This document shows positions 34,474 to 62,842 of a DNA stretch of 64,000 nucleotides, in pieces. The stretch is from a bacterium (GTDB taxonomy: Bacteria; Chloroflexota; Dormibacteria; Aeolococcales; Bog-877). The translations under genes and the position numbers were made by a program. Location of the stretch: contig JAKAXE010000001.1 in the NCBI GenBank assembly GCA_021816695.1, positions 67,344 through 131,343 of the forward strand, in the 5' to 3' direction. The notes under the pieces were generated by a model, which saw only the letters and a list, made by a program, of their open reading frames with translations, made no database searches and was not told the origin of the DNA. Position 1 is the stretch's first letter. Each line of letters opens with the position of its first letter.

Positions 34474-34512
34474 TGGTAGGCGGGGGTGGCGCAAGCAGAC
34501 TGAGAGCGGAGC

Positions 34513-34977: not shown

Positions 34978-35001
34978 CTGTCTTCGCTGAGCCGGGCTGG
35001 G

Positions 35002-44304: not shown

Positions 44305-45351
44305 GTGCCAACTCTCCCGGGTGCCGGGACGGCCGGCCTGCGCATCGGGACGGAGGAAGCTTCCTCCTGGCGCTGGCGGACCACTGGCCCGGGGTCGGCC
44401 ACGACCCTCATCGAGCTGCCTGAGAAGGCCCCGTTCCGGCTCGACCTCACCGTTTGGACCTTGAGGCGCCGCGGGCACAACCAGGTCGATCAGTACGACG
44501 GGACCTGGTACCGGCGGCTCCTGGCTGTCGACGGAGCCGCGGTGGGCGTGGCGGTGCGCCAGCTCGGCCCCAGGCTCGAGATAGTCGCGCGAGGTGAGCC
44601 CCAGGCGGTTTCTCCGGAAGCCCTCCACCTGGTGGGCGTCACCCTGGTGGACATACTGGGGCTCGGCAAGGAGCTTGCCGGCTTCTACCGGGTGCGGAAG
44701 GAGCCATGGCTGGAAGAGCTGGCCCGACGCTTCCGGGGCATGCGCCCACCGCGCTTTCCCAGTGTCTTCGAGGCCGCGGTGAATGCCGTGGTCTGCCAGC
44801 AGCTCAGCCTTGTCGTCGGCATTCACCTGCTCAACCGGCTCGCCGCCCGGTTTGGCACCCGGCCGCCACGGGCCATAGACGGCTGGGGTCCCGGGGCACC
44901 GGAGATGGGACGCATCGCCGGTGCCGACTGGCAGTCGCTGCGGGAGCTCGGCTTGAGCGGCTCCAAGTCAAGGTCTCTGGTGGCCATCGCTCAGGCTCTG
45001 AGCGGTGCGGACTTCGCCTCCGAGGCCCTGGCGGCGATGCCGGACCAACAGCTGGAGGAGAGGCTCCGCTCCCTGCCGGGGATCGGGCGCTGGAGCGCCC
45101 AGTATGTGATGCTCCGCGGGCTGGGTCGCTGGTCGATCCTCCCCGGCGACGACGTGGGTGCCCAGAACGCTCTGCGCCGGCGCTTCCAGCTTCCGGGACG
45201 GCCCGGGTACGAGGAGGTCCAGGAGCTCGCCCAAGCCTGGCGCCCGTACGCGGGTCTGGTCTACTTCCACCTTCTCCTCGCGGGACTCGAGATGGGCGAG
45301 TCAGGGCGGCTGAGCCGGGAGGAGACGGAAGCCGGGGTGGCGGGGCGGTGA
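44305..45351 (+). CDS. HhH-GPD DNA glycosylase, AlkA-like (DNA-3-methyladenine glycosylase II)
   Basis: N-terminal AlkA-like domain. HhH-GPD region LRSLPGIGRWSAQYVMLRGLG with the catalytic Asp context (PGDDVG). Confidence 0.7.
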   Translation: MPTLPGAGTAGLRIGTEEASSWRWRTTGPGSATTLIELPEKAPFRLDLTVWTLRRRGHNQVDQYDGTWYRRLLAVDGAAVGVAVRQLGPRLEIVARGEPQAVSPEALHLVGVTLVDILGLGKELAGFYRVRKEPWLEELARRFRGMRPPRFPSVFEAAVNAVVCQQLSLVVGIHLLNRLAARFGTRPPRAIDGWGPGAPEMGRIAGADWQSLRELGLSGSKSRSLVAIAQALSGADFASEALAAMPDQQLEERLRSLPGIGRWSAQYVMLRGLGRWSILPGDDVGAQNALRRRFQLPGRPGYEEVQELAQAWRPYAGLVYFHLLLAGLEMGESGRLSREETEAGVAGR

Positions 45352-48206
45352 CCGACGTCTTCAACTCGGAGTCAGAGCTCACGGTGGGTGGGCGGCGTTA
45401 CCGGATCAGCCGGCTGGCGTCGCTGCGAGACCTTGCGGATCTCGACGTCCTGCCCTACAGCATCAAGATCCTGCTGGAGAACCTGCTCCGTCACCAGCGG
45501 GACGGGGAGGTCTCTTCCGAGGCGGTGGCTGCCCTGGCCAGGTGGGCCCGGGGGGGCGGTCAATCCCTGGAGCTCCCCTTCCACCCCGAGCGGGTCCTGC
45601 TTCAGGACTTCACCGGGGTGCCTGCGGTAGTGGACCTGGTGGCACTCCGGGACGCCCTCTCCGAGCTGGGCGGTGACAGCGTCCAGGTGAACCCCAAGGT
45701 CCCGGTGGAGCTGATCGTGGATCACTCGGTGATCGTGGATGAATGGCGCGGATCGGCTGCCTTCGACGTCAACCGTACGCTCGAGTTCTCCCGCAACCGG
45801 GAACGCTACCGTCTGCTGCGCTGGGCTCAGCAGGGCTTCCGCCAGTTCGCAGTGGTGCCTCCGGACACTGGGATCTGTCACCAGGTCAACTTGGAGCACC
45901 TCGCCCGGGTGGTGTTCGCCACCGAGGAGGGGGAAGCGTATCCCGACACCTTGGTGGGCACCGACTCTCACACCCCGATGGTCAACGGAATCGGTGTCCT
46001 GGGGTGGGGAGTGGGGGGCATCGAAGCGGAGGCGGCGATGCTGGGACACCCGGTTCCTGTCCCCATGCCCGTGGTGGTCGGGGTATACCTGGAGGGGGAG
46101 CTGCCCCCCACGGCCACCGCCACGGACCTCGTCCTGACGCTGACCCAGTTGCTCCGTCAGCACGGGGTGGTGGGCAAGTTCGTGGAGTTCACCGGCCCCG
46201 GCCTCAGCCGGCTGCGGGTCGAGCACCGCGCCACCCTGGGCAACATGGCGCCTGAATACGGGGCCACCTGTGCCATCAGCCCGATCGACCAGGCCACCCT
46301 GGACTACCTGCGCCTCACCGGCCGGCCAGGTTCCCACGTGGAGCTAGTGGAAGCCTATGCCCGGGAGCAGGGGCTGTTCTTTGACCCCGGCAACCCCCTC
46401 CCGCAATTCTCCGAGCTGGTGCACCTGGACCTCTCCAAAGTGGAGACGTCTTTGGCCGGCCCGGCCCGCCCTCAGGATCGAGTGGCGCTGTCACTCGTGC
46501 CCCAGTCCTTCCGCAGCCACCTCGGGGCACTGGCGCCCGAGACCATGGACTCCGGCACTTTGGCTCCGACCTGGACCCCACCTCCGCTCGTGGATGGGTC
46601 CTGTGAGCAGGCCTCGGCAGACTCCTTCCCCGCCAGCGACCCCCCGGCGTCGAACTGCGCGGGAGCCGCGCACGGCGAGCCCGGTGCTGATCGACCGGAG
46701 GCCGCCAGCCCTCCCGCTCTGCCCAAGGAGCTGTCGGGCAGGCGCAGGCGCGTCGTCGAGGTGGAGCTAGATGGACAGGTGGTGCCGATCGACGACGGCC
46801 ACGTGGTCATCGCCGCCATCACCAGCTGCACCAACACCTCCAACCCCGAGGTGATGGTGGCCGCCGGGCTGATGGCCCGGCGGGCGGTTGACCTCGGGCT
46901 GCGCCGCAAGCCCTGGGTGAAGACCTCGCTGGCACCGGGGTCGAGGGTGGTGATGCGCTACCTTCGCCGGGCGGGCCTGGACCGGCCGCTCGCCGAACTT
47001 GGCTTCAACCTGGTCGGGTACGGATGCACCACCTGCATCGGCAACTCGGGGCCGCTGATCCCGGAGGTGTCCGCGGCGGCGCGGGAGAAGGGGCTCGTAG
47101 TGGCTGCGGTCCTCTCCGGTAACCGCAACTTCGAAGGCCGGATCCACCCCGAGGTGCGCCTCAACTACCTGGCCTCGCCCCCGCTGGTGGTGGCGTATGC
47201 GCTGGCAGGCTCCCTCGACTTCGACTTCGGAGCTCAGCCCTTGGGGACCTCCTCGGATGGCCGTCCTGTCTGGCTCCGGGACCTCTGGCCCGGCGCGCAG
47301 GAGATCGGCGATGTCGTGTCGCAGGTGCTGACCAGCGAGCAGTTCCGGGATGAGTACCGGACCGTCTTCCAGGGGGATGAACTCTGGGAGCGGCTGTTAC
47401 CTCAGGACGCCGCCCGGTTTGTCTGGGAGCCCGAATCGACCTACGTGCGGCGGCCCCCCTTCCTCACCGGGGTGGCGAGGGCGGCCGTTCCGCCTGGGGA
47501 CATCCAGGGGGCTCGTTGCCTAGCGCTGCTTGGGGACAGCGTCACCACCGACCACATCTCTCCGGCTGGCGCGATCAGTCCCGACGGGCCGGCCGGCTCG
47601 TACCTCAGGGGGCACGGGGTGGCCGTACCTGATTTCAACTCCTTCGGCTCGCGGCGGGGCAACCACGAGGTGATGATCAGGGGCACCTTCGCCAACCCGC
47701 GGCTTAGGAACCAGCTTGTGCCCGGCGTAGAGGGGGGGTACACCCGGCATCATCCCAGTGGCCGCACCATGACTATCTACGACGCCTCCTGCCTGTACCA
47801 GGAGGCGGGGACTCCGCTGCTGGTCGTGGCCGGCCGCGACTACGGCTCGGGCTCCTCGCGCGACTGGGCCGCCAAGGGCACGCGGTTGCTGGGCGTGCGC
47901 GCGGTAGTGGCCCAGAGCTTCGAGAGGATTCACCGCTCGAACCTGGTGGGCATGGGCGTGCTCCCCATCGAGTTCTGGAACGGCGCCAGCGCGGCTCAGC
48001 TCGAGCTGACCGGAGAGGAGACCTTCGATCTGCTGGGGATCGCAGACTTGCTCGAGGGGGACCTGGCTGCACTGAGGCTGATAGCCGACGGGCGGGAGCT
48101 CCCGGTGCGGGCGCGGCTCGACTCCCCGACCGAGATCGACCAATTCCGGCACGGGGGCATCCTGCCCCTGACCTTGCGCCAGCTCCTGGGGACGGCCCCA
48201 CTTTGA
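45347..48206 (+). CDS. acnA: Aconitate hydratase A
   Basis: GTG at 45347 overlaps the alkA-like stop (GTGA). Full-length aconitase features include IKILLENLLR, the Fe-S ligand cysteines (ITSCTNTSNP, GYGCTTCIGNSG) and the swivel domain. The 1166-aa track ORF from 44706 is an out-of-frame extension into the glycosylase gene and is rejected. Confidence 0.95.
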
Positions 48207-50267: not shown

Positions 50268-50436
50268 GCCATCAGGATGCCTTCTCGGCGTGTTGTGGAG
50301 TGGTTGGCCTTGGGCCAGGGCCCCTTGAGCTCCACCCCGCCTGGCCGGTGAGAGCGAGGCGGCCCTGGCGGGACGGGCTCGTACCGGGCGGCGTCACTGC
50401 CCGCGCCCGGGGAACGCGCCGGTTCCGGGCCTCAGG

Positions 50437-51603
50437 ATGACGAAGACTTCGGGCCGAGCAGGGCCCGGCAAGCCCCGCTTCTCGCGCTCCGCCCCGGTGG
50501 TCATAGTCGTGGGGGGAGGTGACGCCGGGTTGGCGGCCGCCCTTCACCTGTCCGCGGCCGGCGTGCGGGTCCGGCTCGTGACCGAGGGGGGGAAGGCCGG
50601 GTACCTGCCCGGCGTGCCCGACGTCATCCTGGGTCGGGCTCGGGCGAGCCGATTCCGCGTCCCGCTGAACCTGCCGCAGATCGAGGTCGTCGCGGGCCGG
50701 GCGCGGGAGGTGCGGCCCAAAGGGGTGCGCATTGGCGGCGATTGGATGCCGGCAGATGCGGTGGTGGCGGCACCAGGGCTGACGCTGGCCCGCCAGCGGG
50801 CCGACCCGGCGGCGGGTCCCCTGCCCTGCTGGGACCTGCCGTCGGCCGCCCGGACGACGGCGCGGTTGCTCGACCTCGAGCGGGGGACGGTAGCCATCGT
50901 CATTGCCTCCCTCCCCTACCGCTGCCCGCCCGCACCATTCGGCCTGGCCATGCGGCTGTCCCGACACCTTCGCGAGCGAGGGAGAGGAGTCAGGGTAGTG
51001 CTGACGACCCCCGAGGCGCATCCGTTGGAGGCCTTGGGGCCGGAGCCCGGCACCCACCTGCTGCAGGCCTGTGCCAGCGTCGGGGTGGAGGTCCGTCTGG
51101 GCTGGGCCCCGGCCCGGGAGGCGCTGGCGAGGGGGCGGCTGGTGGGGGAGGATGGCAAGCCGCTGGCCGCTGAGCTGGTGCTCCTGGTACCGGCCCACCG
51201 CCCCAGCCCTCTGCTGGCACCGCTGGCGGGGGAAGGGCCGCTGGTCCCGGTGAATCATCAGTTCGAGACCCACTGGGCGGGACTGTTCGTGGCTGGCGAC
51301 GCGGCCGCCAGCCCATATCCTCGCGCGTCGGGAGCGGCCATCGCGTCGGGCAAGTCCGCCGCTCAGGGGGTGCTGGCGCGGCTCGGCCTGTCGGAGAAGG
51401 AAGAGGGCAGCCTGCCTCAGCTCGACTGCTACGTCGGCCACGGCGGCGATATCTACAGCCGGCTGAGCGTGCGCTATCCCGAGGGCCCGCCTCCCGTGGG
51501 CCACCCCCAGGTGCTCATCGACGGACCGTCCGCCGACCTCGGCACCGAGTTCGGGGAGGGATTCCTGCGCTGGCTTCGTGCCAGGCAGCCCGGCGCCCGG
51601 TAG
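50437..51603 (+). CDS. FAD-dependent pyridine-nucleotide-disulfide oxidoreductase, sulfide:quinone oxidoreductase-like
   Basis: Rossmann VVIVVGGGDAGLAAALHL and a second dinucleotide fold (GLFVAGDAA). SQR-like Cys context (YRCPPAPFG). The antisense track ORF 50272-51504 is rejected as an artefact. Confidence 0.65.
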   Translation: MTKTSGRAGPGKPRFSRSAPVVIVVGGGDAGLAAALHLSAAGVRVRLVTEGGKAGYLPGVPDVILGRARASRFRVPLNLPQIEVVAGRAREVRPKGVRIGGDWMPADAVVAAPGLTLARQRADPAAGPLPCWDLPSAARTTARLLDLERGTVAIVIASLPYRCPPAPFGLAMRLSRHLRERGRGVRVVLTTPEAHPLEALGPEPGTHLLQACASVGVEVRLGWAPAREALARGRLVGEDGKPLAAELVLLVPAHRPSPLLAPLAGEGPLVPVNHQFETHWAGLFVAGDAAASPYPRASGAAIASGKSAAQGVLARLGLSEKEEGSLPQLDCYVGHGGDIYSRLSVRYPEGPPPVGHPQVLIDGPSADLGTEFGEGFLRWLRARQPGAR

Positions 51604-51708
51604 CAGGTGGACCCGCCACCGCGAGGGGTGGTCCGGCCCCGGCGAGGGCGGCGACCAGTGCCGCCGGGCGCGCTACAAGCGGGAAGGCCCGGGCGGGGCA
51701 TCAGGATA

Positions 51709-51731
51709 ATTACACTATATGCGTCGTGTTA
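51709..51731 (+). promoter_or_regulatory. Operator-like dyad TTACAC-N10-GTGTTA in an AT-rich patch 12 nt upstream of the NnrS-like gene start
   Basis: Seen directly. Same core and spacing as the dyad at 59083-59104. Confidence 0.4.
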
Positions 51732-51742
51732 AAGGTTAGGGG

Positions 51743-53062
51743 ATGATCCGCCCGCAGCGAAGCCCCGAGATCGGCCTGCCTCTGCGCTACCTGGCGACAG
51801 GGATGGGGGCCTGGCTGCTGGCGGCCGTGGCGGTGCCCGTGCTGGCCTCCCACCTCACCTCGGGATTCGACGACCCGGAGGTCTTCGCCCTGACCCATCT
51901 CGTGGTGCTGGGCTGGGTGACCATGACACTCATGGGGGCCCTCTTCCAGCTCTTCCCGGTGGCCCTCCAGGCCACCCTTGCCGCACCGCGCCTGGTCCGA
52001 TGGAACTACTTCGTCTACACGGCTGGGGTGGCCGGCTTTGTGCCCAGCTTCTACTTCAACTGGACCCCGGGCGTGGCCGGCTTCGGGAGCCTTGCGGTTC
52101 TCGGGATCCTGGTCTTCGCCGCGGTGCTGGCCGTCAGCTACCGGACCGTCCGCACCCGGCACCCCATGGGGCTGTTCGTCCTCTGCGGGCTCGCCTGGCT
52201 CCTGGTCACTATCGGCTTCGGGCTGACCTGGGCCCTGGACTGGCAGTTCCAGTGGTTCGCGATCACCCCCAACATGCTCGCCGCCCACGTCCACGCCGGG
52301 CTGGCGGGTTGGTTGGGATGCACTCTGATCGGAGTCTCGTACAAGCTCATGGAGCTGTTCGCGCTGGCGCACCGCCGCAGCTGGCGGGCGGCCCACATCC
52401 TGCTGGTCCTCTGGAACGGCTCTCTGGCGGCGCTGGTGCTGGGTCTTCTGCTCTGGCCCGGCAGCATCGAGGTCAGGGTGGCGTCCACCGCGCTCGCTGG
52501 AGCGGTGCTCCTGTTCGCGGCCGACCTCTTCCAGATGTGGCGAGGGCGACGCCGTCGCCGGGTCTCCGTGGAGCAGGGCCACGTGGCCGTCAGCCTCACC
52601 TCGCTGCTGATGGCGGCAGGCCTGGGGGTCCTGCTCAGCGCCGGGGTCGATTTCCCCCCGCGGGCCTTCGTCGCCTACGGCTACGCCGCCATCATGGGAG
52701 GATTCGGCTTCGCCATCGCCGGCCGGTACCAGAAGATCCTCCCCTTCCTCACCTGGGTCCATCGCTACTCTCGGGGCCCCGGGCCAACTCCGCCTCCGTT
52801 GCTCCAGGACCTCGTGGATGAGCGCCTGGGATGGATCAGCCTGCTTGTCCTCACCGCGGGATACGCCACCACTTTGGGAGGCCTCCTTGCTGGTTCGCCG
52901 GTGGCGGTCCTGGGAGGTGGTGCGGTGTACGCCGCCGGGGCGGTGCTGGGGCTGGGGGCGGTGCGCCTCACCCTCCTTCCGGCCCGTGCCGCCCGGCGGT
53001 CGTCCCCTGCTGCTGCCCTGCCAGGATCACGGACCGGGACCTCGGCGCCCCCCTCCCCCTGA
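51743..53062 (+). CDS. Polytopic (about 12 TM) membrane protein, possibly NnrS-like heme-copper protein
   Basis: 439 aa with about 12 hydrophobic helices and conserved-looking His residues in helices (THLVVLGW, HVHAGLAGW, HRRSWRAAH). The assignment rests on topology and genomic context and is uncertain. Confidence 0.45.
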   Translation: MIRPQRSPEIGLPLRYLATGMGAWLLAAVAVPVLASHLTSGFDDPEVFALTHLVVLGWVTMTLMGALFQLFPVALQATLAAPRLVRWNYFVYTAGVAGFVPSFYFNWTPGVAGFGSLAVLGILVFAAVLAVSYRTVRTRHPMGLFVLCGLAWLLVTIGFGLTWALDWQFQWFAITPNMLAAHVHAGLAGWLGCTLIGVSYKLMELFALAHRRSWRAAHILLVLWNGSLAALVLGLLLWPGSIEVRVASTALAGAVLLFAADLFQMWRGRRRRRVSVEQGHVAVSLTSLLMAAGLGVLLSAGVDFPPRAFVAYGYAAIMGGFGFAIAGRYQKILPFLTWVHRYSRGPGPTPPPLLQDLVDERLGWISLLVLTAGYATTLGGLLAGSPVAVLGGGAVYAAGAVLGLGAVRLTLLPARAARRSSPAAALPGSRTGTSAPPSP

Positions 53063-53067
53063 GCAGG

Positions 53068-54332
53068 TGGTGAAGGCTACTCCAACTCGGAAACCGCCGC
53101 CCACCGTGGTGGTGATCGGGGCGGGGTTCGCCGGTCTGGCCGCGATGGCGGATCTCGCCAGGCTGGGCTGGGACGCCTGGCTGGTGGAACGGCAGCCCTA
53201 CACGACCTTCCAGCCGCTTCTCTACCAGGTGGCGACCGGGGGCCTGAATCTGGAGGATGTCGCCTTCCCCATCCGCAGCCTGCTGCGCCGGATGGGTCGC
53301 GGAAGATTCGTGCAGGGCGTCGCGGCCTCCGTCGACTGGGACCTGAGACAGGTGACCCTGGAAGGTGGGCAGACCCTCTCTTACGACCACCTGCTGCTGG
53401 CCACGGGAGCCGCACCCAAGTTCTTCGGTGTGCCCAGCGCGGCCGAGTTGGGGCTTCCCCTCCACACCCTGGTGGACGCGGCCCGGCTGCGAACTCGGCT
53501 CGTTGCGGTGCTGGAGCGGGCCGCCGCCGACCACACCCAGCACCGGGTGCACCTGGTGGTGGTGGGAGGAGGGCCGACCGGGGTGGAGACGGCCGGGGCG
53601 CTGGCGGAGCTCCGGGACCTTTTGGCGGGGAGGGACTATCCGGAACTGGGCCGGGATGACATCAGCATCGAGCTCCTGGAGGCGGCTCCGCGGCTGCTCC
53701 CCAGCTTTCACCCGGAGCTGTCCCGCTACGCTCGCCGGGAGCTGGAACGGCGCTCTGTGGTCGTTTTAACCGGCAGCGCAGTCCGGCAGGTGCAGGAAGG
53801 GGCGGTCCTTCTCGACTCCGGGCTGAGGCCTACGGACCTTTTGGTCTGGTCGGCCGGAGTGGAGGTGGCCGACTCCCCCTTGCTGCGCGGCCTGGCCCGG
53901 ACCGCGTCGGGGCGGCTGGACGTCACCCCTTCCCTGCAACTGCCAGGTCACCCAGAGGCCTTTGCCCTGGGGGACTGTGCCGGCGCGCGAGCCGGCACGG
54001 CTGAACTGCCGCAGCTGGCTCAGCCAGCGATCCAGGCCGGTCGGCATGCGGTGCGGCAGCTGCGCCGGATTCGCTCCGGTCAGGAGCCCCTGCCCTTCCG
54101 GTATCGCGACCGGGGGACCATGGCCACCATCGGCAGGCGGGCGGCGGTGGCCCAGCTTCGAGGCGGGCTCAGGCTCACCGGAACGGCCGCCTGGCTCGCC
54201 TGGCTGGGGCTACACCTAGTGGAGCTCCTCGGGGTCCGCAACCGAGCCTCGGTCCTGCTCAATTGGACCTGGCACTACCTGGCCTGGCGGCAGGCCGCGG
54301 GACTGATCCCACCAGCACCTGGCCCCGGATAG
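53068..54332 (+). CDS. ndh: Type II NADH:quinone oxidoreductase (NDH-2)
   Basis: VVVIGAGFAGL and VVVGGGPTGVE dinucleotide-binding motifs. GTG start near 53068. The track ORF from 52818 overlaps the preceding gene in another frame. Confidence 0.8.
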
Positions 54333-54348
54333 CCAGGCCCCGGACTCC

Positions 54349-54741
54349 TCAGGGTCCGGGGAGGACGGCGAGAGCCGCTCCCAGTCCGAGAATGGCAATC
54401 GAGCCGATCAGGGTCATGCCCGCCAGAAGCCGGGTGCGGTGCCGAGGCAACCGATGCGCCACCAGGCCGTGGACCGCCGCCAGGGCGAAGACAGCTCCCA
54501 CGAGCGCCGCCTTCACCAAAAGGACCCTTCCGAAGGCAGTGGTGGTGAGGTTGCCGAGGCGCACCCCGTTCAGGGCGGCCAGGGCGATCCCGCTGGCCAC
54601 CAGCACCGGCAGAAGCACCCAGTTGGTGACCGTCGCGAAGCGCCGTCCCGTAGAACTCGCCAGCTCCCGCACCAGCTGCGGTGACCCGCCGCTGCGCAGC
54701 ACGGGCATGACCACCACGACAAGCATGAGCTGGCCCCCCAC
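54349..54741 (-). CDS. Small hypothetical membrane protein (about 130 aa)
   Basis: Four short hydrophobic helices. The frame extends upstream without a clear start (GTG in WVGG or the ATG). The 219-aa track ORF 54275-54934 in another frame is Arg/Pro-rich and rejected. Confidence 0.35.
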   Translation of the reverse strand: MGGQLMLVVVVMPVLRSGGSPQLVRELASSTGRRFATVTNWVLLPVLVASGIALAALNGVRLGNLTTTAFGRVLLVKAALVGAVFALAAVHGLVAHRLPRHRTRLLAGMTLIGSIAILGLGAALAVLPGP

Positions 54742-54834
54742 CCAGAAGCTGGCGGCCAGGACATGAACCAGGACGAGGAGTGTCCACAGCAGCGGGCTCA
54801 GCGCATGTTCTCCGGCTACCGGAGGGGGCGCGGA

Positions 54835-55386
54835 TCAGCCGCCAACTAGCTGCTCCATCCGTTCCCAAAGCTCTGTCCGAGCGTGGGAGTCCAGGGGCGG
54901 TCGGCCCAGGACGAGCACGGTCGGCTCGTCCCACCCGAGATCCCAGGATGCGCTGAGCCGTCCCGAATCCGGTTCTGTGGACTCCACGGTCATGGAGAAG
55001 GGCGTCCTCAGCATCCGCAGGGTCTCCTCAAGCTCGCGGAGGGGAAGGATCCCGGTGGCGGAAAAGCGCAGCTCTAGACCATCCGCCTGGTCGGCCCGGG
55101 CCGTGCAGCTGGTCTCGTCGGCGACCGCAGCTGCCAACCGGTGGGCGATGAGGTGCGCCCGCGTGGTGGTCTGGGAGTCGAGCAGCTCCCCCTGGATCTG
55201 CTTCCACGAGGCGCCCTGGGTCAGGCGCTCCATGGCGTGGAGGGCTGAGGTCACCTCACGCGGCTCCATCGGGCCGATGGAAAGGGAGACCTCGAGGAGT
55301 GCCCCGCACCCCTGGCTCCGACCTCGCTCTGGGGAAAGCCCGGCCACCACCTCCACGGCTTCGCCGGGCGCCGTCCGAGATGCCAA
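54835..55386 (-). CDS. Hypothetical protein, last gene of the redox operon
   Basis: 183 aa of ordinary composition, 3 nt downstream of fdxA. No motif. Confidence 0.4.
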   Translation of the reverse strand: MASRTAPGEAVEVVAGLSPERGRSQGCGALLEVSLSIGPMEPREVTSALHAMERLTQGASWKQIQGELLDSQTTTRAHLIAHRLAAAVADETSCTARADQADGLELRFSATGILPLRELEETLRMLRTPFSMTVESTEPDSGRLSASWDLGWDEPTVLVLGRPPLDSHARTELWERMEQLVGG

Positions 55387-55388
55387 CC

Positions 55389-55694
55389 TCAGGCCCCCTG
55401 CACCACCCGCGGCTTGAGCTCCTCAACCCGGGCCCGGGCTGCGGCCGGATCCTTGAAGTACTGCTCATTGATCTCCGTGTACTGGTTCCACTGCGGCGGC
55501 AGGTCCTCCTCCGCGTAGATGGCGTCCACCGGACAGGGGTCCACACACGCCCCACAGTCGATGCACTCCAGAGGGTTGATGTAGAGCATGCGATCCTCGT
55601 CGGTCCCGATGATGCAATCGACCGGGCACACCTCGACGCAGGCCTTGTCCTTCACATCGACACAAGTCTCTCCGATCACGTAGGTCAACGCCAT
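55389..55694 (-). CDS. fdxA: 7Fe ferredoxin ([3Fe-4S][4Fe-4S], FdxA type)
   Basis: TYVIGETCVDVKDKACVEVCPVDCI ... CIDCGACVDPCPVDAI Cys pattern, 101 aa. Confidence 0.9.
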   Translation of the reverse strand: MALTYVIGETCVDVKDKACVEVCPVDCIIGTDEDRMLYINPLECIDCGACVDPCPVDAIYAEEDLPPQWNQYTEINEQYFKDPAAARARVEELKPRVVQGA

Positions 55695-55728
55695 TCCTCC
55701 TCAGGGCTAGGTCGAGCCCCCATGCAGG

Positions 55729-56040
55729 TCACCGCTCCACCTCGATTACGACCTCGTCGTGCTCCCGAAGGGTGGGATACGTCTGCAGCGGGAGCACCGC
55801 CGGAAGGTTGAGCACGTCCCCAGTGGCGAGGTCGAAGCACGACCCGTGGCAGGGGCATTCCACGGCCTCCCCCTCCAGCGCCCCCGCACTGAGCGAGCAG
55901 TCCTCGTGGGTACAGGTGTCATCCACCGTGTACCAGCCACCACTCTCGGTGTGGGCCAGGCAGAGGACCTTCTCGCCGAGCTCGAGGCGAAGAAGTCCTG
56001 GCCGCGGTAGCGTGGCCACCGGGATTCGGACGGTCGCCAC
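55729..56040 (-). CDS. Soluble Rieske [2Fe-2S] ferredoxin-like protein (NirD/oxygenase-ferredoxin type)
   Basis: CTHEDCSL ... CPCHGSCF (CxH...CxxH). Start is probably the GTG near 56040 (VATVRIP...). The track ORF extends to 56199. Confidence 0.7.
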   Translation of the reverse strand: MATVRIPVATLPRPGLLRLELGEKVLCLAHTESGGWYTVDDTCTHEDCSLSAGALEGEAVECPCHGSCFDLATGDVLNLPAVLPLQTYPTLREHDEVVIEVER

Positions 56041-56041
56041 C

Positions 56042-56284
56042 TCAGCTGGCGCGGACACGACTACCCCCTTGCGGCCGCCGGCAGGTGAGGTGATGGAGGG
56101 TCCCGGTGAAGCGCTCGGCAGCCGCTGGGTCCCACTTCTCCAAGAGGGCGTAGGCGGAAGCCGCCATCCGGCAGGCGCTCTCCACCTGGCCGGCATCACC
56201 GAGCTCCCGCAGGGCCTGGTCCAGGATCCTGGCCAGCCTGCCTGTGGCGGTCACTGCGAGCGGCGCCCGATCCGGACCTTCCAT
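56042..56284 (-). CDS. Small hypothetical protein (80 aa)
   Basis: ORF of ordinary composition bridging the OsmC-fusion and Rieske genes. Overlaps the OsmC-fusion C-terminus by 34 nt, so coding status is uncertain. Confidence 0.25.
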   Translation of the reverse strand: MEGPDRAPLAVTATGRLARILDQALRELGDAGQVESACRMAASAYALLEKWDPAAAERFTGTLHHLTCRRPQGGSRVRAS

Positions 56285-56925
56285 GTCTTCGGGCCCTGCT
56301 CCAGGTATTCCCAGCTGAACTCCTCGCCCCTGGTGGCCTCGAGCTGGTAGCGCAGGGGCAGAGGATCATGGTCGTTCACCAGGGTTAGGTTCCTGCCGGC
56401 CTCCAGCCGGTCGATGGTGGAGAAGATCAGCTGATGGCGCTGGGCAGGGGCCAGGGAGCGGACGTCCAGTTCCTCCTGCGCCGCTTCGGGGGCTCGGACC
56501 GACACCCGGCCCACCCGGTACTCCACCTCGCTCCGCAGGTGCTTGCCGATGAAGCAGTGCTCCCGGGCCAGGTTGGCCGCAGACTGGTAGGCGTCATGGC
56601 GCGTGGGATCTCCGCCCAGCACCTCTGGGGTCACCAGGAGCTCAGAGATCCGCAGCGGCTGGCCCTCCACCCGCTGTCGCATCCTCACCTGGACCTTATC
56701 CCAGGGGAGGCCGTCTCGGTTCAGGAGTGAACTGAGGGTGCCGGTGTAACAGGTGGCGACCGCGCTGGCCAGGAGCTCCTCCGGGCTGCTCCCCTCGCCC
56801 CGCCCGCCCATCCCGGCGGGGACGGACCAGGCCAGGACCTGGTCCCCGGTCTCGACTGTGCCGAGCGCGTCCCGGCCGACTCCGGACCACCGGGTGGTCA
56901 CCTCGAACGTCAGCTCATTCATCAT
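56251..56925 (-). CDS. OsmC/Ohr-family domain fused to a C-terminal DUF2249-like domain
   Basis: N-terminal OsmC-like region TRWSGVGRD...SPEELLASAVATCY. C-terminal LDVRSLAPAQRHQLIFSTIDRLEAGRNLTLVNDHDPLPLRYQLE, which resembles the stand-alone DUF2249-like protein at 57815-58051. Confidence 0.6.
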   Translation of the reverse strand: MMNELTFEVTTRWSGVGRDALGTVETGDQVLAWSVPAGMGGRGEGSSPEELLASAVATCYTGTLSSLLNRDGLPWDKVQVRMRQRVEGQPLRISELLVTPEVLGGDPTRHDAYQSAANLAREHCFIGKHLRSEVEYRVGRVSVRAPEAAQEELDVRSLAPAQRHQLIFSTIDRLEAGRNLTLVNDHDPLPLRYQLEATRGEEFSWEYLEQGPKTWKVRIGRRSQ

Positions 56926-57822
56926 TCATCTCCCTTCTTCCCCATCGCCCTTCCCTGCCTCTTGCTGAGGCATGGGCTCCTCCGGATGGCCTCCCGTCAG
57001 GCTCTGCACCATTGCCTCCCGCTCATCCGGGCCGAGCCGGGAGAGCAGGGGAAGGTACAGCTCCTCCTCCTTGTCGAAGTGCAGCTGGACCGTCGTCGCC
57101 AGCTGCTGGAGCAGCGCGCGCACCTCCTCCGAGCGCCCCGCGGCAGCCGCTCGCTCCAGATCCCCTGCCAACCGCTCGATGCGGCGGTGGTCGTACTCCA
57201 TGGTGGCGGTCGCCTTGGCTTCAGCCCTGAGCACCCGGCCTACCTGGGGGTAGATGAGGCGCTCCTCGGCTCGCGCGTGCGGGAGGAGTTCATTCTCCAG
57301 GAACTCGATCGCGGTCTGGATCTCTCCGTCAAGCTGATCGACGTCGCCTCTCGAAAGTCGCTGGGCGAGAAGGCCCAGGTGGGCCACCCCGTTGATCAGC
57401 TCCCGGTGCTCGGAGCGGATGACGGCTGCCGGGTCCGGGCCCGGGGGCCGCACCGGCCAGGCCACCGACTCATCTCCCAGGTGGTCGCCCGCACCGGGTG
57501 GAGGGGACACGATGGCCAGCGCCACGAGCCGCCCGGCAGGGCAACGCACTCCCCGAGCGACACCGGCTGGTACGGTGGCCACCTCCCCCGCCAGGAGCCA
57601 CCGAGTCGTGTCGCCGGTGAGCAGTTCGGCCGTTCCCTGAAGGACGCAGAGGACCAGCCCGCTGGTCGGGCGGTGAGGTGGCAGCTCCCGCCCGGGCGTC
57701 AGCTCCAGCAGGAGCACCCGGTGCGAGGGCGCATCGCTCAGGGTTCGAGCGATCGGACCCCCACTGGATCGGACCTTATCAGAATGGATCACCTCGACTT
57801 CGGTGGCCGCTGCCTCACCCAT
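56926..57822 (-). CDS. Cupin domain fused to hemerythrin-like (HHE cation-binding) domain
   Basis: N-terminal cupin beta-barrel pattern (LLELTPGRELPPHRPTSGLVLCVLQG). C-terminal His/Glu/Asp pattern HRELINGVAHL...EFLENELLPHARAEE...MEYDHRRIE...LHFDKEEELYLPLL. Confidence 0.7.
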   Translation of the reverse strand: MGEAAATEVEVIHSDKVRSSGGPIARTLSDAPSHRVLLLELTPGRELPPHRPTSGLVLCVLQGTAELLTGDTTRWLLAGEVATVPAGVARGVRCPAGRLVALAIVSPPPGAGDHLGDESVAWPVRPPGPDPAAVIRSEHRELINGVAHLGLLAQRLSRGDVDQLDGEIQTAIEFLENELLPHARAEERLIYPQVGRVLRAEAKATATMEYDHRRIERLAGDLERAAAAGRSEEVRALLQQLATTVQLHFDKEEELYLPLLSRLGPDEREAMVQSLTGGHPEEPMPQQEAGKGDGEEGR

Positions 57823-58051
57823 CGCGCCGCGCCTCCAGTGGGCTGAAGACCACCAGGAAGTCTCCCTCGCCCAGGTCCTCCGTCTCGTGGCCGTATCCCC
57901 GGGACTCCATCACCGAGTAGAGAGGAACCGGGTCGAGGGGCGCCACGAGCTCGAGCGGTTCTCCAGGGGAGAGGGCGGAGACCGCCGCCATGATCGCCGC
58001 GAAGGGCTCTTCTCCTCTGGCCATCAGCCCCCGGACATCCAGATGGGCCAT
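57815..58051 (-). CDS. DUF2249-like small protein (78 aa)
   Basis: LDVRGL...PFAAIMAAVSALSPGEPLELVAPLDPVPLYSVMESRGYGHE matches the DUF2249 pattern seen fused in the neighbouring gene. Confidence 0.5.
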   Translation of the reverse strand: MAHLDVRGLMARGEEPFAAIMAAVSALSPGEPLELVAPLDPVPLYSVMESRGYGHETEDLGEGDFLVVFSPLEARRDG

Positions 58052-58057
58052 CCGACC

Positions 58058-58393
58058 TCAGCTCCAGCCCAGGGCTTGCTTGGCGGCGGGACTCATCATG
58101 TCCGGCTCCCAAGGTGGCTGCCACACCAGCTCCACCGCCACCTCACGGACTCCTGGGATCGTCTCCAGGCGGAACCGGACCTGATCTGGGATGCTGCCCC
58201 CCATTGGGCAGCCCGGGGTGGTCAGGGTCATCGCTACCAGCAGAGCACCTTCGTGGACCTCGAGTCCGTACACCAGCCCCAGGTTCACGAGGTCGATGCC
58301 CAGCTCGGGATCGTAGACCTCCAGGAGGCGCTGCCAGGCTTCCTGCTCGATCGCTGGGTCGCCCAGGGTGTCCGCCAGCGGTGGTGTCATCAC
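58058..58393 (-). CDS. DUF59 / SufT-like Fe-S cluster assembly protein (MIP18 family)
   Basis: YDPELGIDLVNLGLVY ... TPGCPMG motif, 111 aa. Confidence 0.75.
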   Translation of the reverse strand: MMTPPLADTLGDPAIEQEAWQRLLEVYDPELGIDLVNLGLVYGLEVHEGALLVAMTLTTPGCPMGGSIPDQVRFRLETIPGVREVAVELVWQPPWEPDMMSPAAKQALGWS

Positions 58394-59073
58394 TCACCCG
58401 CGCTGGTGACCGCATCCCTGCCGGCGAGATCGGCGACGCAGAGGTTCGGCTCGACCAGCGGGTGGAGCTCGGAGACGGTGACCCCGGCCCCGACCTCTGC
58501 CAGCGCCCCGCGCAGCAAGCCCAGGTGCGCTGAGCAGATGAGCTGGCGGTTCCCGGCGGCCACTTCCAGGAACGGGCAGCGGTGAAGGTTGATTCGCGAC
58601 CGCCCCTGAACCTCTTCGAGCTCCGGGCTGAACCCCAGGTCCGCCAGCATCCCGAGGACCCGGGGTAGCCCCCCTCCGCTCTCGGCAGCGTCCGCACGCG
58701 CGAGCTCGGCACCCCACCGGGTTCCGAGCTCCAGGCCCGTCCTCTCAGCACTGGGGGACGAGGTCGAGAGATAGCCGGACAGCACCTCGGCCAGCATCCG
58801 GTATCCGGCCTCTGGCCCTGCATTCACCACTGCATGCCAGATCCGCCGGGGCCGGCCCCGGCGCAACCGACGCTCCGTCTCCGAGGCGACCAAGCCTGCG
58901 CGCGCCAGCACCTCGAGATGGAATCGCACCGTGTTCACATGTATCCCCGCCCGCTCCGCGAGCTCCTGGGCGTCCAGCGGCGCCGGGGCCCTGCGAAGCT
59001 CCTCGAGCAGGGCGACCCGGGTCCAGTCCGAGAGGGCCCGGTGGGCCCGTAGGGAGGTCTCAGGTGTGCTCAT
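58390..59073 (-). CDS. ArsR-like winged-HTH regulator with C-terminal Cys/His domain; first gene of the redox operon
   Basis: ATG at 59073-59071 (MSTPETS...). wHTH region [32 protein letters not shown]-terminal motif HRCPFLE...[15 protein letters not shown]. The 378-aa track ORF from 59526 is an upstream over-extension. Confidence 0.7.
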
Positions 59074-59082
59074 GCCGATATT

Positions 59083-59138
59083 ATACACAACAGATATTGT
59101 GTCAATCATGCGACGACAGATACACGTCTGTGTCCGCA
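59083..59138. promoter_or_regulatory. AT-rich operator-like region: ATACAC-N10-GTGTCA dyad plus a second ACAGATACACGTCTGTGTC dyad between the divergent ArsR-like regulator and yyaL-like gene
   Basis: First dyad at 59083-59104 and second at 59117-59138, in a conspicuous AT-rich 70-bp intergenic patch. The same ACAC-N10-GTGT core and spacing recurs at 51710-51731. Confidence 0.4.
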
Positions 59139-59145
59139 GTACCTT

Positions 59146-61161
59146 GTGGCGATGAACCGCCTCGCCCAGGAGTCCAGCCTCTATCTCCGCCAGCATCAGG
59201 AGAACCCGGTCGACTGGTACCCCTGGGGTGAGGAGGCGTTCACCGTCGCCCGGGCAGAGGACAAGCCGGTGCTGCTGAGCGTGGGCTACTCCACCTGCCA
59301 CTGGTGCCACGTGATGGCCCACGAGTCCTTCTCCGACCCCGAGGTTGCCGAGCTCCAGAACCGCCTCTTCGTCTCCATCAAGGTGGATCGGGAGGAGCGC
59401 CCCGGGGTCGACCGGATCTACATGGAGGCGCTGCTTGCCTTCACCGGGTCCGGCGGCTGGCCCATGACCGTCTTCCTCCTCCCGGATGGGCGGCCCTACT
59501 TCGCCGGAACGTACTTCCCACCCCAAGATCGTGGCGGCCTTCCTGCCTTCCGCCGGGTGCTGCTGGCGGCCGCGGCAGCCTACCGGGACCGGCGCCCGGA
59601 TCTCGAGGCGACCTCCCGCGAGCTGGCACGGGCGCTGGCGCCCTCAAGGGTCGGCGGGACCGGGTCGGCTCCCTCGCAGGAGGACCTCGCCGCCGCCTCG
59701 GAGCGCGTCCTCGCCGGCTGGGACAAGGACCACGGGGGGCTGCGCGGTGCGCCCAAGTTCCCCCAGGCTCCCCTCCTGGAGTTCCTCCAGGCGCGCTGGG
59801 CACTGCGCGGGGACCAGGACGCCGGGCGGGCCGTGGGACTGACCCTCCGACGCATGGCGGAGGGCGGGATTCACGATCAGTTGGGAGGTGGATTCCACCG
59901 CTACTCGGTGGATGACCGTTGGGGGGTACCCCACTTCGAGAAGATGCTCTATGACCAGGCCCAGCTGATCCCCCTCTACCTCCATCACTGGCAGATGCAG
60001 CGAGATGAGGGGGCGCTCGGGGTGGCCGTCCAGACCGCGGAATTCATAGTCAGCGGACTCGGGCTGCCTTCGGGAGGGTTCGCCGCTGCCGTCGACGCCG
60101 ACTCCGCCGGCCGGGAGGGGCTCACCTACCTCTGGACCCGGGAGCAGCTGGAGAGCGCCGGGGGGGAGGGCTGGCGGGAGTTCTGGAGGCTGGATCCCGG
60201 CGCCCGGGTGGACGGTGACTTCGTGCTCCAGGCCGCGCTCCCCTGGGGGCGCCTTCCGCCTGGGGCCGCGGAGGTGCGCTCGCGGCTCCTGGCGGAGCGG
60301 GCGGAGCGCCCCCAGCCCCAGCGGGACGACAAGGTCGTGGTGGCGTGGAACGCTCAGGCGGCCAGCGCGCTCGCGGAGCTGGGGCTCCTGCTTTCGGATG
60401 ACCGATTCCTCACCCCGGCGCTGCGGTGTGCCCTCTTGCTCTGGGAGAGCGCGCGTGACTCCGAGGGCGGGCTCACCCATCTCCTGTACGGCTCGAGCTC
60501 CCGCCTTCCGGCCACCCTTGAGGACCGGGCGGCGCTCGGCCTGTGCGGCCTTTGGATGCACGAGCTCACCGGCGACGGGGTGTGGGTGGAGCGGTCCTTG
60601 GATTTGGCGGAGTCGGCCGAGCGGCTCCATCGGGACGGGGCGGGGCTATGGCACGAGACGGCCGCCGGAGCTGACCCCCTGCTGCCGGCTCGGCCGACCG
60701 TGGTTGACGACGGGGCCACGCGCTCCGGGATCTCCCAGATGGCCTCCCTCTGCTGGCGGCTCTGGCAGCTCACCGGGGAGGCGTCGTGGTCGGAGCGGGC
60801 CGAGGCGGCCGCGTCGCGTCTCGGCCGGGGCGCGACCGGCCAGCCCCTGGCCTTCGGAGGGCTCCTGGCCGACCTCGAGTCCATGAACGCTGGGGGGACC
60901 CAGCTGGCCATAGCAGCTGCACCAGGGGAACATCTCGAGCTCCTCCGCCGGGCTCGCTCCCACTTCTTGCCGACCCTGGTGGTGGCAGTGGGCACCGGGT
61001 CGGAGTCGGATCCGCCACTCGCCGCCGGGCGGCCGGCCCTGGGCGGCATCCCTACGGCACACGTCTGCCGTGACTTCACCTGCCGGATGCCCACCACGCT
61101 GGTAGACGACCTCGAGGCGCAGCTTTCCGCCGCGCGATCCGCGGGGAGCATGGGAGGATAG
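59146..61161 (+). CDS. Thioredoxin-domain protein of the YyaL/DUF255 family (N-terminal thioredoxin-like fold plus six-hairpin-glycosidase-like domain)
   Basis: N-terminal [13 protein letters not shown]...[20 protein letters not shown] signature, 671 aa. Confidence 0.9.
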
Positions 61162-61920: not shown

Positions 61921-62757
61921 TCAGCCGGCCATCGGATTCCGCACCGGGCGGCCGGGGTCCGCCGCCCACTCGCTCCAGGAGCCCGGGTAGAGCTGTCCCG
62001 GATGGCCTCCGGCCACCTCCAGGGCGAGGAGCACCGCGCAGGAGGTGACCCCGGACCCGCAGTAGACCACGACCGGACGGTCATCCGCACCGGATTCTCC
62101 GAGCAGGTGCCGCAGCTCGGCCGCGGGGCGGAGCCGACCCCGGTCGAAGAGGTCGGTCCAGGGGAGGCTGACCGCCCCCGGGAGGTGCCCGGGCCGGGGG
62201 TCCAGTGGGTTTGGCTGCCCCAGGTAGCGCGCCCTGGCCCGCGCGTCCACTACGACGCTGCCCCGATCCCGGCACGTCTCGAGGCTATCCGCACCCACCC
62301 AGCCCTCGAACCCCTCGGCCTGGAAGTCGCCGGACCGTGGGGCCGGCCGCTCACCGGTGAGCCTCCCCCCTGCCTCCAGATAGGCCCGGAGGCCGCCGTC
62401 CAGGACCGCCACCCGGCGGTGGCCGGCGGCCCGGAGCATCCACCAGGCCCGGGCCGCTGCCCCGGTGACCTCGTCGTACACCACCACCTGGCTGCCGGCG
62501 TTGACCCCGTGGCGGCGCATGCTGGCGACAAAGCTCTCCACCGGCGGAAGGGGGTGGCGGCCCTGCGGGCCCGCCGGTCCTGCGAGCTCCAGGTCAAGGT
62601 CCACGAACTCCGCCCCGGGGATGTGGCCGGCGAGATAGGCCTCGCGTTCGGCACCCAGCTCCAGCGACCAGCGCACGTCCAGGACCACCAGATCCGGCGC
62701 GCCCAGCTGCCGGATCAGGTGGTCGGGCTGCACCAGGGGCTGGGGCCTATCCGGCAT
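61921..62757 (-). CDS. Tandem-rhodanese sulfurtransferase (thiosulfate/3-mercaptopyruvate sulfurtransferase-like)
   Basis: Two rhodanese domains with active-site loop CGSGVTSCAV in the C-terminal domain. ATG at 62757 (MPDRPQ...). The track ORF extends to 62835. Confidence 0.85.
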   Translation of the reverse strand: MPDRPQPLVQPDHLIRQLGAPDLVVLDVRWSLELGAEREAYLAGHIPGAEFVDLDLELAGPAGPQGRHPLPPVESFVASMRRHGVNAGSQVVVYDEVTGAAARAWWMLRAAGHRRVAVLDGGLRAYLEAGGRLTGERPAPRSGDFQAEGFEGWVGADSLETCRDRGSVVVDARARARYLGQPNPLDPRPGHLPGAVSLPWTDLFDRGRLRPAAELRHLLGESGADDRPVVVYCGSGVTSCAVLLALEVAGGHPGQLYPGSWSEWAADPGRPVRNPMAG

Positions 62758-62842
62758 GGCGACATAATGCCGGAAGTGGGCCGTACGCAAGGATTCAGCC
62801 GGAGGGGGGCGCGACCCTCCCCCCTCGGAGGCCACCGTCTGA

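Follow-up and report, generated by a model that had tools for sequence, protein, structure and literature searches.

Within a 64,000-nucleotide stretch of contig JAKAXE010000001.1 (assembly GCA_021816695.1; hereafter the window; G+C content about 70%), sequence comparison identifies positions 54349-59073 of the minus strand as a real operon of ten genes in a soil Dormibacterota genome. Comparative evidence firmly supports its membership in a widespread gene set associated with nitrate respiration and denitrification, of which it appears to be a lineage-specific enlarged form. We propose, with a probability of roughly 0.55, that the operon is the Dormibacterota form of this accessory module and handles nitric oxide (NO) and its products. 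The proposal builds on gene content and order, conservation, folds, conserved ligand residues and the occurrence of N-oxide reductase genes near such loci, from which we infer the signal, the substrate and the catalytic steps.

A ten-gene operon in a soil Dormibacterota genome

The listing of open reading frames (ORFs) and inspection of the sequence reveal nine minus-strand ORFs running in one direction across 54835-59073, which an initial annotation of this DNA had rightly described as co-directional and overlapping or nearly abutting. The nine genes are real, but the unit is larger than that annotation held: a tenth gene in the same direction, encoding a CopD-like membrane protein at 54349-54801, had been missed, and the operon is tied to a convergent gene for a membrane protein resembling haem-copper oxidases (HCO-like). 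Pfam supports the HTH_20, DUF59, DUF2249, Hemerythrin, OsmC, Rieske and Fer4 domains, in line with the assignments made initially. The features are as follows.

59078..59105, minus strand: promoter and candidate operator (promoter scan and orthologue comparison; putative function)
58390..59073, minus strand: regulator with an ArsR-type winged helix-turn-helix and a V4R-like domain (Pfam HTH_20, 46 bits)
58058..58390, minus strand: DUF59 (FeS_assembly_P) protein (Pfam, 65.8 bits; gathering threshold 23.5)
57815..58051, minus strand: stand-alone DUF2249 protein of type B (Pfam, 65.0 bits; gathering threshold 29.5)
56926..57822, minus strand: cupin-hemerythrin fusion (Pfam Hemerythrin, 62.8 versus 25.3 bits; Cupin_2, 21.6 bits, below the gathering threshold of 27.2)
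56251..56922, minus strand: OsmC-DUF2249 fusion, DUF2249 of type A as C-terminal domain (Pfam OsmC, 52.2 versus 27.5 bits; DUF2249, 97.6 versus 29.5 bits)
56042..56284, minus strand: small ORF, an 80-amino-acid protein with a predicted helical hairpin (no Pfam or NCBIfam family)
55729..56058, minus strand: soluble Rieske-type [2Fe-2S] ferredoxin (Pfam Rieske, 63.2 versus 20.3 bits)
55389..55694, minus strand: 7Fe-type, FdxA-like ferredoxin (Pfam Fer4; NCBIfam FdxA_Actino, 115.3 bits versus 125)
54835..55386, minus strand: lineage-specific protein, last of the nine genes (no Pfam, NCBIfam or PDB match)
54349..54801, minus strand: CopD-like membrane protein with four transmembrane segments (Pfam CopD, 28.7-29.5 bits, below 32.1)
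53106..54332, plus strand: type II NADH dehydrogenase (NDH-2), convergent on the operon (Pfam Pyr_redox_2 and NDH2_C)
51743..53062, plus strand: HCO-like membrane protein of 439 amino acids with about 12 transmembrane segments, convergent (identity to homologues at related loci)

Apart from a 34-nucleotide gap between the Rieske and fdxA genes, the junctions among the nine genes are overlaps or gaps of at most 8 nucleotides. The regulator's stop codon and the DUF59 start overlap in TGATG at 58390, the DUF59 and DUF2249 genes lie 6 nucleotides apart, and the DUF2249 and cupin-hemerythrin genes overlap by 8 nucleotides; after a gap of 0-3 nucleotides follows the OsmC-DUF2249 gene, which overlaps the small ORF by 34 nucleotides, and the small ORF in turn overlaps the Rieske gene by 17 nucleotides. 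From fdxA to the last gene the gap is 2 nucleotides, if TTG 55386 is the start. A scan of 54000-59600 found no terminator-like site, and an Rfam search of 51000-60000 found no RNA family.

The OsmC-DUF2249 protein most likely starts at 56922; an exact look-up of the version beginning at the first ATG found nothing, the catalogued protein having its start one codon further on. The Rieske gene starts at GTG 56058 and encodes 109 amino acids. For the last of the nine genes, 55386, 55269 and 55254 are candidate starts, with the conserved part beginning at about residue 30. A start-codon comparison found no ATG, GTG or TTG 5' of the invariant histidine in the CopD-like gene, whose likely start is the CTG at 54799-54801, with GGAG 8 nucleotides 5' of it; its orthologues use the same CTG at locus L005 and GTG or ATG at loci L002 and L016.

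Conservation within Dormibacterota and across phyla

Proteins of the window match metagenome-assembled genomes assigned to Candidatus Dormibacterota or Dormibacteria. A nearly identical contig is present in ENA (ERZ27237345 k141_364946; L001), and five further contigs from Dormibacterota share the gene order of the operon, with proteins 35-90% identical, indicating that the arrangement is conserved and not a product of chance. The order from regulator through DUF59, DUF2249, cupin-hemerythrin, OsmC-DUF2249, small ORF, Rieske and FdxA to the hypothetical protein is kept in L002, L003, L005 and L007, and partly in L006. In L004, the operon includes the gene for the 12-transmembrane protein, placed after the regulator gene and before DUF59, and narGHJI follows directly; nar genes also adjoin the operon in L002 and L007. 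These placements put the 12-transmembrane protein and nitrate reductase in the same functional neighbourhood. In the window, narGHJI, encoding respiratory nitrate reductase, lies together with an anion channel gene at 27457-35961 on the plus strand, 20 kb from the operon.

Scanning for the DUF2249 type-A motif, with one genome per species, yielded 80 loci, which span Actinomycetota, Chloroflexota, Alpha-, Beta- and Gammaproteobacteria, Bacillota, Deinococcota and others, with the core present in at least five phyla. For partner counts, we compared the window's proteins with six-frame ORFs within 5 kb of the type-A (DUF2249A) anchor at the 44 loci that have at least 5 kb on both sides. DUF59 lies near the anchor at 33 of these 44 loci, the small ORF at 27, an HCO-like membrane protein at 23, type-B DUF2249 at 22, hemerythrin at 15, an ArsR-like regulator at 11 and an FdxA-like ferredoxin at 10. 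The small ORF, initially treated as filler, is among the most conserved members. Genes of the nar, nir or nor groups occur within 10 kb of DUF2249A at 16 of the 44 loci (36%). This count, the nor-nir cluster of Rhizobium etli described below and narGHJI 20 kb away bear out the suggested tie of DUF2249 and hemerythrin proteins to denitrification and NO loci. As judged from these loci, the conserved core is made up of six parts: an HCO-like or CopD-like protein, two kinds of DUF2249, DUF59, hemerythrin and a helical-hairpin domain. The apparent Dormibacterota additions are the OsmC-DUF2249A fusion, the cupin on the hemerythrin, the Rieske and 7Fe ferredoxins, the lineage-specific protein and the convergent NDH-2.

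Related clusters are found in annotated genomes. On R. etli p42f, norECBQD is followed by hemN, DUF2249A, a gene for a 450-amino-acid membrane protein, two copies of type-B DUF2249 (DUF2249B), DUF59, nnrS, nirK, nirV, nnrR and nnrU (core RHE_RS29145-29160). The same core is present on S. meliloti pSymA; a literature search on that locus returned nothing. In Mesorhizobium and further Hyphomicrobiales loci, DUF59 is followed by a homologue of the small ORF. The DUF2249A gene of Ralstonia solanacearum sits immediately 5' of qNorB, divergent from nirK. The Thermus thermophilus locus reads nar, drpA, drpB, a COX1-like gene with four transmembrane segments, protoglobin, HCO-like, DUF59. Its DrpA belongs to DUF2249 type A, keeps every invariant residue and shows 53% identity to the window's domain, and its DrpB combines DUF1858 with two type-B DUF2249 domains. 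The protoglobin gene (L086 10447-11286), lies between the COX1-like and HCO-like genes; other lineages have hemerythrin in the module instead, and both are candidate gas-binding proteins. In Haloferax, DUF2249 genes are up 3-8 log2-fold under denitrifying conditions (PMC11218638).

DUF2249 domains are predicted to adopt a TusA-like fold

In our alignments, type-A DUF2249 has the invariant residues Arg14-His15, Asp36-His37-Asp38-Pro39, Gln45, Trp56 and Glu60, while type B, the stand-alone gene here, lacks the type-A invariant residues; neither type contains a cysteine. PDB sequence searches with DUF2249 profiles gave nothing usable, and the fold was therefore predicted by model. The AlphaFold (AF2) model of the type-A domain (pLDDT 93) shows a beta-alpha-beta-alpha-beta-beta fold and matches SirA, TusA and YeeD structures with TM-scores of 0.58-0.75; the fold matches include IscS-TusA and YeeE-YeeD. 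Moreover, the type-B domain of Thermus DrpB matches Pfam TusA (E 4e-5). The modeling thus predicts a TusA-like fold for DUF2249. In the model, the first turn of helix 1 carries the type-A Arg-His pair; in TusA, this is the region of the persulfide cysteine. Compared with a TusA-like sulfur carrier, DUF2249 has the fold and not the carrier cysteine. The conserved Arg/His/Asp site of type A could bind an anion or a metal.

Both catalytic cysteines are present in the OsmC domain, aligned to Thermus OsmC (1ukk). The domain stays below the NCBIfam subfamily cut-offs (63 versus 166; 52 versus 86), which places it, on these scores, as an OsmC-fold protein outside the named subfamilies. Full-length OsmC-DUF2249 fusions are found almost only in Dormibacterota, and DUF2249A has been fused independently to OsmC, AhpD, hemerythrin and ScdA_N. 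In two Bacillota metagenome-assembled genomes, OsmC stands beside the module as a gene of its own. Other Dormibacterota loci, such as L002 (11561-12668), carry extra genes for a stand-alone OsmC and a CMD/AhpD-like protein between their CopD-like and HCO-like genes. In the metagenomic protein P0048, DUF2249A is fused to AhpD, which ties the domain a second time, and independently, to thiol peroxidases.

Membrane proteins and neighboring genes

The HCO-like protein has about 11-12 hydrophobic segments, and H52 and H182 are its sole invariant histidines. L002 and L004 encode homologues of it, with 53-62% identity, within the operon or next to it; these homologues carry a precomputed "COX1 (weak)" match, and the window protein itself has no Pfam COX1 or NnrS match. 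In hhalign comparisons, its profile matched NorB over helix II only (E 1.3e-3, weak) and NnrS weakly and partially. The Thermus neighbor with four transmembrane segments matches COX1 with E 1.3e-5. We rejected a catalytic NO reductase role for the 12-transmembrane protein, which conserves two histidines where six are required; with two histidines it would have no binuclear centre and at most one haem. The weak evidence available suggests that it may be a kind of HCO homologue. Neither Pfam nor NCBIfam models this two-histidine family, whose members are "hypothetical protein" in R. etli and Thermus (L087 9265-10617; L086 11337-12488). Pei et al. are said to have described in 2014, under the name HCOH, multi-transmembrane proteins with two conserved histidines, in forms with 12 and with four transmembrane segments, from denitrification and NO contexts; a literature search on HCOH returned nothing.

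The CopD-like protein has four transmembrane segments and two invariant histidines. It scores below the NCBIfam CopD cut-off (37 versus 195) as well as that of Pfam, and is no more than a four-transmembrane relative. Its gene is conserved after the operon in L001, L002, L003 and L005, and in L016, L033 and L038 it stands directly after a hemerythrin-DUF2249A gene, replacing the 12-transmembrane protein, which is absent there. NDH-2 holds the same position in L001 and L005 and lies near the module in several Actinomycetota loci; its association with the module is weaker than that of the other parts.

Directly 5' of the HCO-like gene is an FAD oxidoreductase (50329-51603, plus strand) with a weak match to the flavocytochrome-c sulfide dehydrogenase central domain; it may form a plus-strand operon with the HCO-like and NDH-2 genes. 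In the window, narGHJI is followed by a 157-amino-acid ORF without a Pfam match and a gene for a SLAC1/TehA-like anion channel, as it also is in L004, where this group adjoins the operon. An aconitase ORF (44598-48206, plus strand) reaches about 320 codons 5' of its Pfam Aconitase domain.

Iron and redox proteins and the small domain

The di-iron ligand set of the hemerythrin (H, HxxxE, H, HxxxE) is complete: H14, H57, E61, H87, H123 and E127, numbered in the hemerythrin segment, are conserved at 97-100% in 30 sequences. The initial reading of this protein as a cupin-hemerythrin fusion held; the cupin match is below the gathering threshold, and the cupin lacks the usual HxH...E metal motif. 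We found this fusion in Dormibacterota only. RIC/YtfE/ScdA was considered as an identity for the hemerythrin and rejected, on 25.1 bits against the 204.7 required by NCBIfam TIGR03652, the absence of ScdA_N and the presence of an N-terminal cupin.

The cysteine of the TTPGCP motif (Cys61) of the DUF59 protein is invariant in 61 neighbors. The initial annotation had called this protein SufT-like; the DUF59 domain stands, but the NCBIfam SufT/SUF-associated equivalog cut-offs are not reached (105 versus 143.4 and 104 versus 202.6 bits), and there are no suf genes near the operon.

Homologues of the small ORF occur at 53 of 84 loci, across phyla. They share invariant Ala37 and His64, with Cys38 in 86% of members. 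A full HMMER pass over 1.84 billion protein representatives yielded 121 clusters, mostly of 70-110 amino acids. Dormibacterota and Alphaproteobacteria encode the domain as a separate gene; in Actinomycetota, Acidimicrobiia among them, it sits in frame between the hemerythrin and DUF2249A domains. Pfam and NCBIfam have no family model for it and gave only weak TPR matches. This pattern of conservation indicates that the small ORF is a real conserved domain family, predicted to form a helical hairpin of about 60 residues.

In the Rieske protein, the CxH...CxxH ligands (C49-T-H51 and C68-P-C-H71) are invariant. Its nearest NCBIfam families are dioxygenase ferredoxin subunits, with scores below cut-off, and it has no Tat signal; it recurs beside the module in Dormibacterota loci only. 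The FdxA-like ferredoxin conserves the cysteine motifs for 3Fe-4S and 4Fe-4S clusters and scores below the cut-off of its nearest NCBIfam model (NF045480). The last of the nine genes (54835-55386) is likewise confined to Dormibacterota, with 35-44% identity in L002 and L003 (tblastn).

Promoter, candidate operator and regulator

The regulator most likely starts at ATG 59073, giving a protein of 227 amino acids. Public gene calls (P0090, L001) place the start at ATG 59109, for 239 amino acids; this is probably 12 codons too long, since that ATG lies 5' of a conserved -10 element and the closer homologues have 227 amino acids. In the 5.6 kb scanned, the single strong promoter-like site lies directly 5' of the regulator, with TTGACA at 59105-59100 and TATAAT at 59085-80, 6 nucleotides ahead of the regulator ATG. 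The 14-nucleotide spacing between them is off the canonical -35/-10 spacing, and the promoter call therefore relies on the conserved -10 element and its fixed distance to the start: in Dormibacterota orthologues, this element lies 6 nucleotides before the ATG or GTG and reads TATAAT in most, with TG or TGTG just 5' of it in four. Because the -10 element is only 6 nucleotides from the start codon, the promoter is predicted to give a leaderless transcript.

Adjoining the -10 element is an inverted repeat, ACACAA-N6-TTGTGT (59102-59085), whose core, ACnA-N6-TnGT, is present in three orthologues and recurs with one covarying pair in L005 and L007. Autoregulation, which the initial annotation had proposed, is plausible, since the regulator gene comes first in the operon and the promoter ahead of it contains an inverted repeat; the mode would plausibly be repression. 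Regulator homologues in Actinomycetota, mostly Acidimicrobiia, have another palindrome, TTCCGG-N6-CTGGAA, at the same position relative to the gene; in L024, L035, L040, L041, L061 and L081 it contains a -10-like TATACA/TACACT.

The regulator fuses an ArsR-type winged helix-turn-helix to a V4R-like sensory domain, and its family alignment shows invariant Cys166-Pro-Phe, Cys180-x2-His183 and Cys212. The family has several hundred members, annotated merely as "helix-turn-helix" or "predicted ArsR", and the combination of the two domains corresponds to no named family. The protein scores 37.9 bits against the NCBIfam NF033788 metalloregulator model (cut-off 55), and its Cys3His site is located in the V4R-like domain, away from the ArsR dimer interface. 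The V4R domain of DmpR binds zinc via Cys/Glu/Cys/Cys (PMC7264223), and by analogy the Cys3His site may hold a structural zinc; alternatively, a reactive metal or an Fe-S cluster may occupy it. Two further comparisons were set aside: the protein does not match the SufR model and has a different cysteine spacing, and OrpR is no precedent for a V4R-domain Fe-S sensor, its cluster sitting in a PAS domain. Divergent from the regulator is a DUF255 thioredoxin-fold protein (59146-61161), and a rhodanese is encoded at 61921-62835.

Proposed function and alternative explanations

A role in NO management at the membrane and at iron centres fits best, because of the NO-responsive Proteobacteria regulons, the pairing of DUF2249A with qNor, the hemerythrin and the thiol peroxidase fusions. 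In the scheme that we propose, the core would be transcribed as one leaderless operon behind its own ArsR-V4R-like repressor. Active NarGHI would give rise to nitrite-derived NO, and to peroxynitrite, upon which the regulator would let go of its operator. The membrane protein and its DUF2249 partners would then bind or turn over NO at the membrane (compare DUF2249A with qNor in Ralstonia), supplied with electrons by the two ferredoxins or, via NDH-2, by NADH. Hemerythrin and DUF59 would protect or rebuild iron centres, and OsmC would clear hydroperoxides or peroxynitrite. A literature search on DUF59 together with NO returned nothing, and the Fe-S or diiron repair module of the initial annotation is one reading among several. 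More speculative, and possible rather than probable, is a stronger version in which the DUF2249 proteins, with an invariant Arg-His / Asp-His-Asp site in place of the carrier cysteine, are dedicated soluble partners of HCO-superfamily membrane proteins (qNor in Ralstonia, two-histidine HCO-like proteins elsewhere). With these, DUF59, hemerythrin and the small domain, they would make up an unrecognised membrane complex for the binding or turnover of NO or nitrite. On this view, no other form of the complex would be as complete as the Dormibacterota operon, with its own electron supply (the Rieske and 7Fe ferredoxins and NDH-2), a fused peroxidase and a new type of ArsR-V4R sensor with a Cys3His metal or Fe-S site.

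Several observations weigh against a role in handling NO. About two thirds of the DUF2249A loci have no N-oxide reductase gene within 10 kb, which means that the tie between module and denitrification is not strict. A two-histidine membrane protein cannot be a conventional NO reductase, and its HCO homology was weak in the hhalign test; the hemerythrin falls outside the RIC family and the DUF59 protein is not a SufT equivalog; and the regulator's Cys3His site may be a DmpR-like structural zinc rather than a redox or NO sensor (PMC7264223). The sole genetics at hand, those of Thermus DrpA and DrpB, point to regulation or sensing and not to detoxification (PMC6282519). In Thermus, the drp genes are under DnrT control, and when DrpA or DrpB is lost, expression of dnr and nar goes up and no longer depends on nitrate (Chahlafi et al., 2018; PMC6282519).

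The main rival is accordingly a sensing or signalling device, in which DUF2249A, DUF2249B and the membrane protein sense nitrate, nitrite or NO, a role suggested for DrpA and DrpB in Thermus, and tune nitrate reductase expression, the redox proteins being accessory. The Thermus phenotypes, the close relation of DrpA to the type-A domain here, the type-B domains of DrpB and a type-A site that could bind an anion or metal all speak for it. However, the operon has its own DNA-binding regulator along with redox enzymes (a two-cysteine OsmC, a di-iron hemerythrin and two ferredoxins), the Ralstonia DUF2249A gene is co-transcribed with an NO reductase and not with a regulator, and DrpA is reported to be periplasmic whereas no signal peptide is found here; we consider this explanation unlikely. 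Distinctly unlikely, in our view, is a maturation system whose soluble proteins insert haem, iron or Fe-S clusters into the HCO-like protein or into Nar or Nor, with the DUF59 protein as carrier, the TusA-fold proteins as shuttles and hemerythrin as iron donor. Its appeal lies in the Fe-S maturation family to which DUF59, with its invariant cysteine, belongs, in the carrier role of TusA-fold proteins that dock on partners (IscS-TusA and YeeE-YeeD being among our fold matches) and in the hemN gene that adjoins the core in rhizobia. Yet DUF2249 lacks the TusA carrier cysteine, many loci have no reductase nearby, and the OsmC and AhpD fusions would be hard to account for.

Less probable again is an operon for general oxidative stress or for copper/iron homeostasis, controlled by a metal sensor of the ArsR/SmtB type, to which the proximity of nitrate respiration would be incidental. 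An ArsR-type winged helix-turn-helix with Cys3His, the CopD-like protein, the OsmC peroxidase and the divergent DUF255 gene would suit such an operon, as would the majority of loci without N-oxide genes within 10 kb. Against this, the regulator is below the metalloregulator cut-off and carries its metal site in the V4R-like domain, the CopD match is also below cut-off, the 36% association with nar, nir or nor is judged to be far above that of a random 20-kb window, and the core is found in clusters controlled by NnrR, NsrR or DNR. A chance juxtaposition of unrelated genes would agree with the gap before fdxA, the uncertain start of the ninth gene and a co-transcription deduced from sequence, but the genes overlap or nearly abut without an internal terminator-like site, and a gene order conserved at 35-60% identity within the phylum, with the core kept across phyla, contradicts it; we regard chance as extremely improbable.

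Comparison with known systems

The core neighborhood has been noticed before (Rodionov et al., 2005; Chahlafi et al., 2018; Pei et al., 2014, as cited in PMC11218638), and the system is not categorically new. The initial statement that the unit is not a described system holds in part only, given the COG4309-nor link (PMC1274295), the studied members DrpA and DrpB (PMC6282519) and the link to HCO homologues (cited in PMC11218638). What is new is the Dormibacterota form: it has two fusions specific to the lineage, a dedicated pair of ferredoxins and one further protein, and the architecture of its regulator is undescribed. In the literature examined we found no account of the small domain family, of types A and B of DUF2249 or of the candidate binding site.

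Rhizobia, Ralstonia, Thermus, haloarchaea and many soil phyla carry DUF2249 (COG4309), two-histidine HCO-like proteins and DUF59, which are among the most persistent unknowns of denitrification clusters. How the abundant, uncultured Dormibacterota of soils deal with N-oxides bears on soil NO and N2O fluxes. Here the module is seen at its richest, and the locus offers hypotheses that can be tested in tractable relatives: the type-A candidate site, a small domain missed by annotation pipelines, repeated fusions to thiol peroxidases and an ArsR-V4R-like regulator class.

The rhizobial cluster is akin to the operon in keeping DUF2249A, an HCO-like protein, DUF2249B and DUF59 together, as in the core here, and Ralstonia in placing DUF2249A directly 5' of an HCO-superfamily enzyme, qNorB. 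The association of DUF2249 with nor was published in 2005, when the Ralstonia "COG4309-norB" operon was predicted to be regulated by NsrR and DNR (Rodionov et al.; PMC1274295). The rhizobial and Ralstonia clusters differ in gene order and lack hemerythrin, OsmC, cupin, ferredoxins and an ArsR-type regulator; they stand under Crp/Fnr-type NnrR/DNR or under NsrR. The Thermus drpAB locus adjoins respiratory nitrate reductase (narCGHJIK) and has, as here, DUF2249A, DUF2249B, an HCO-like protein and DUF59, along with a COX1-like protein of four transmembrane segments. It lacks hemerythrin, OsmC, cupin, Rieske, FdxA and the ArsR-type regulator, has protoglobin instead, and carries an extra DUF1858 in DrpB; DrpA is reported to be periplasmic (PMC6282519), in contrast to the operon's proteins, which have no signal peptide.

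Among membrane proteins, the HCOH group, including NnrS, has in common with the protein here two conserved histidines and denitrification or NO contexts, although NnrS itself is of a different family, given the absence of a Pfam NnrS match. Pei et al. (2014) noted DUF2249 neighbors of HCO homologues, as cited in PMC11218638. The RIC/YtfE/ScdA/DnrN proteins repair iron centres, and YtfE is also an NO-forming nitrite reductase (PMC9052748). They have the same four-helix di-iron domain, the same ligands and the same NO-stress association as the hemerythrin here, but RIC/YtfE/ScdA carry ScdA_N where the N-terminal partner here is a cupin. The V4R domains of DmpR, PoxR and XylR differ from that of the regulator in their ligand set, which here is Cys3His with other spacing, and in the AAA+ domain, which is absent here. 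Finally, DUF2249 has in common with TusA, SirA and YeeD (TsuB) the predicted fold and a conserved site at the start of helix 1 together with a D-x-D-P loop; the CPxP cysteine of the TusA carriers gives way to Arg-His and Asp-His-Asp in type A, motifs that are missing from type B, and YeeD acts docked on a membrane partner encoded beside it.

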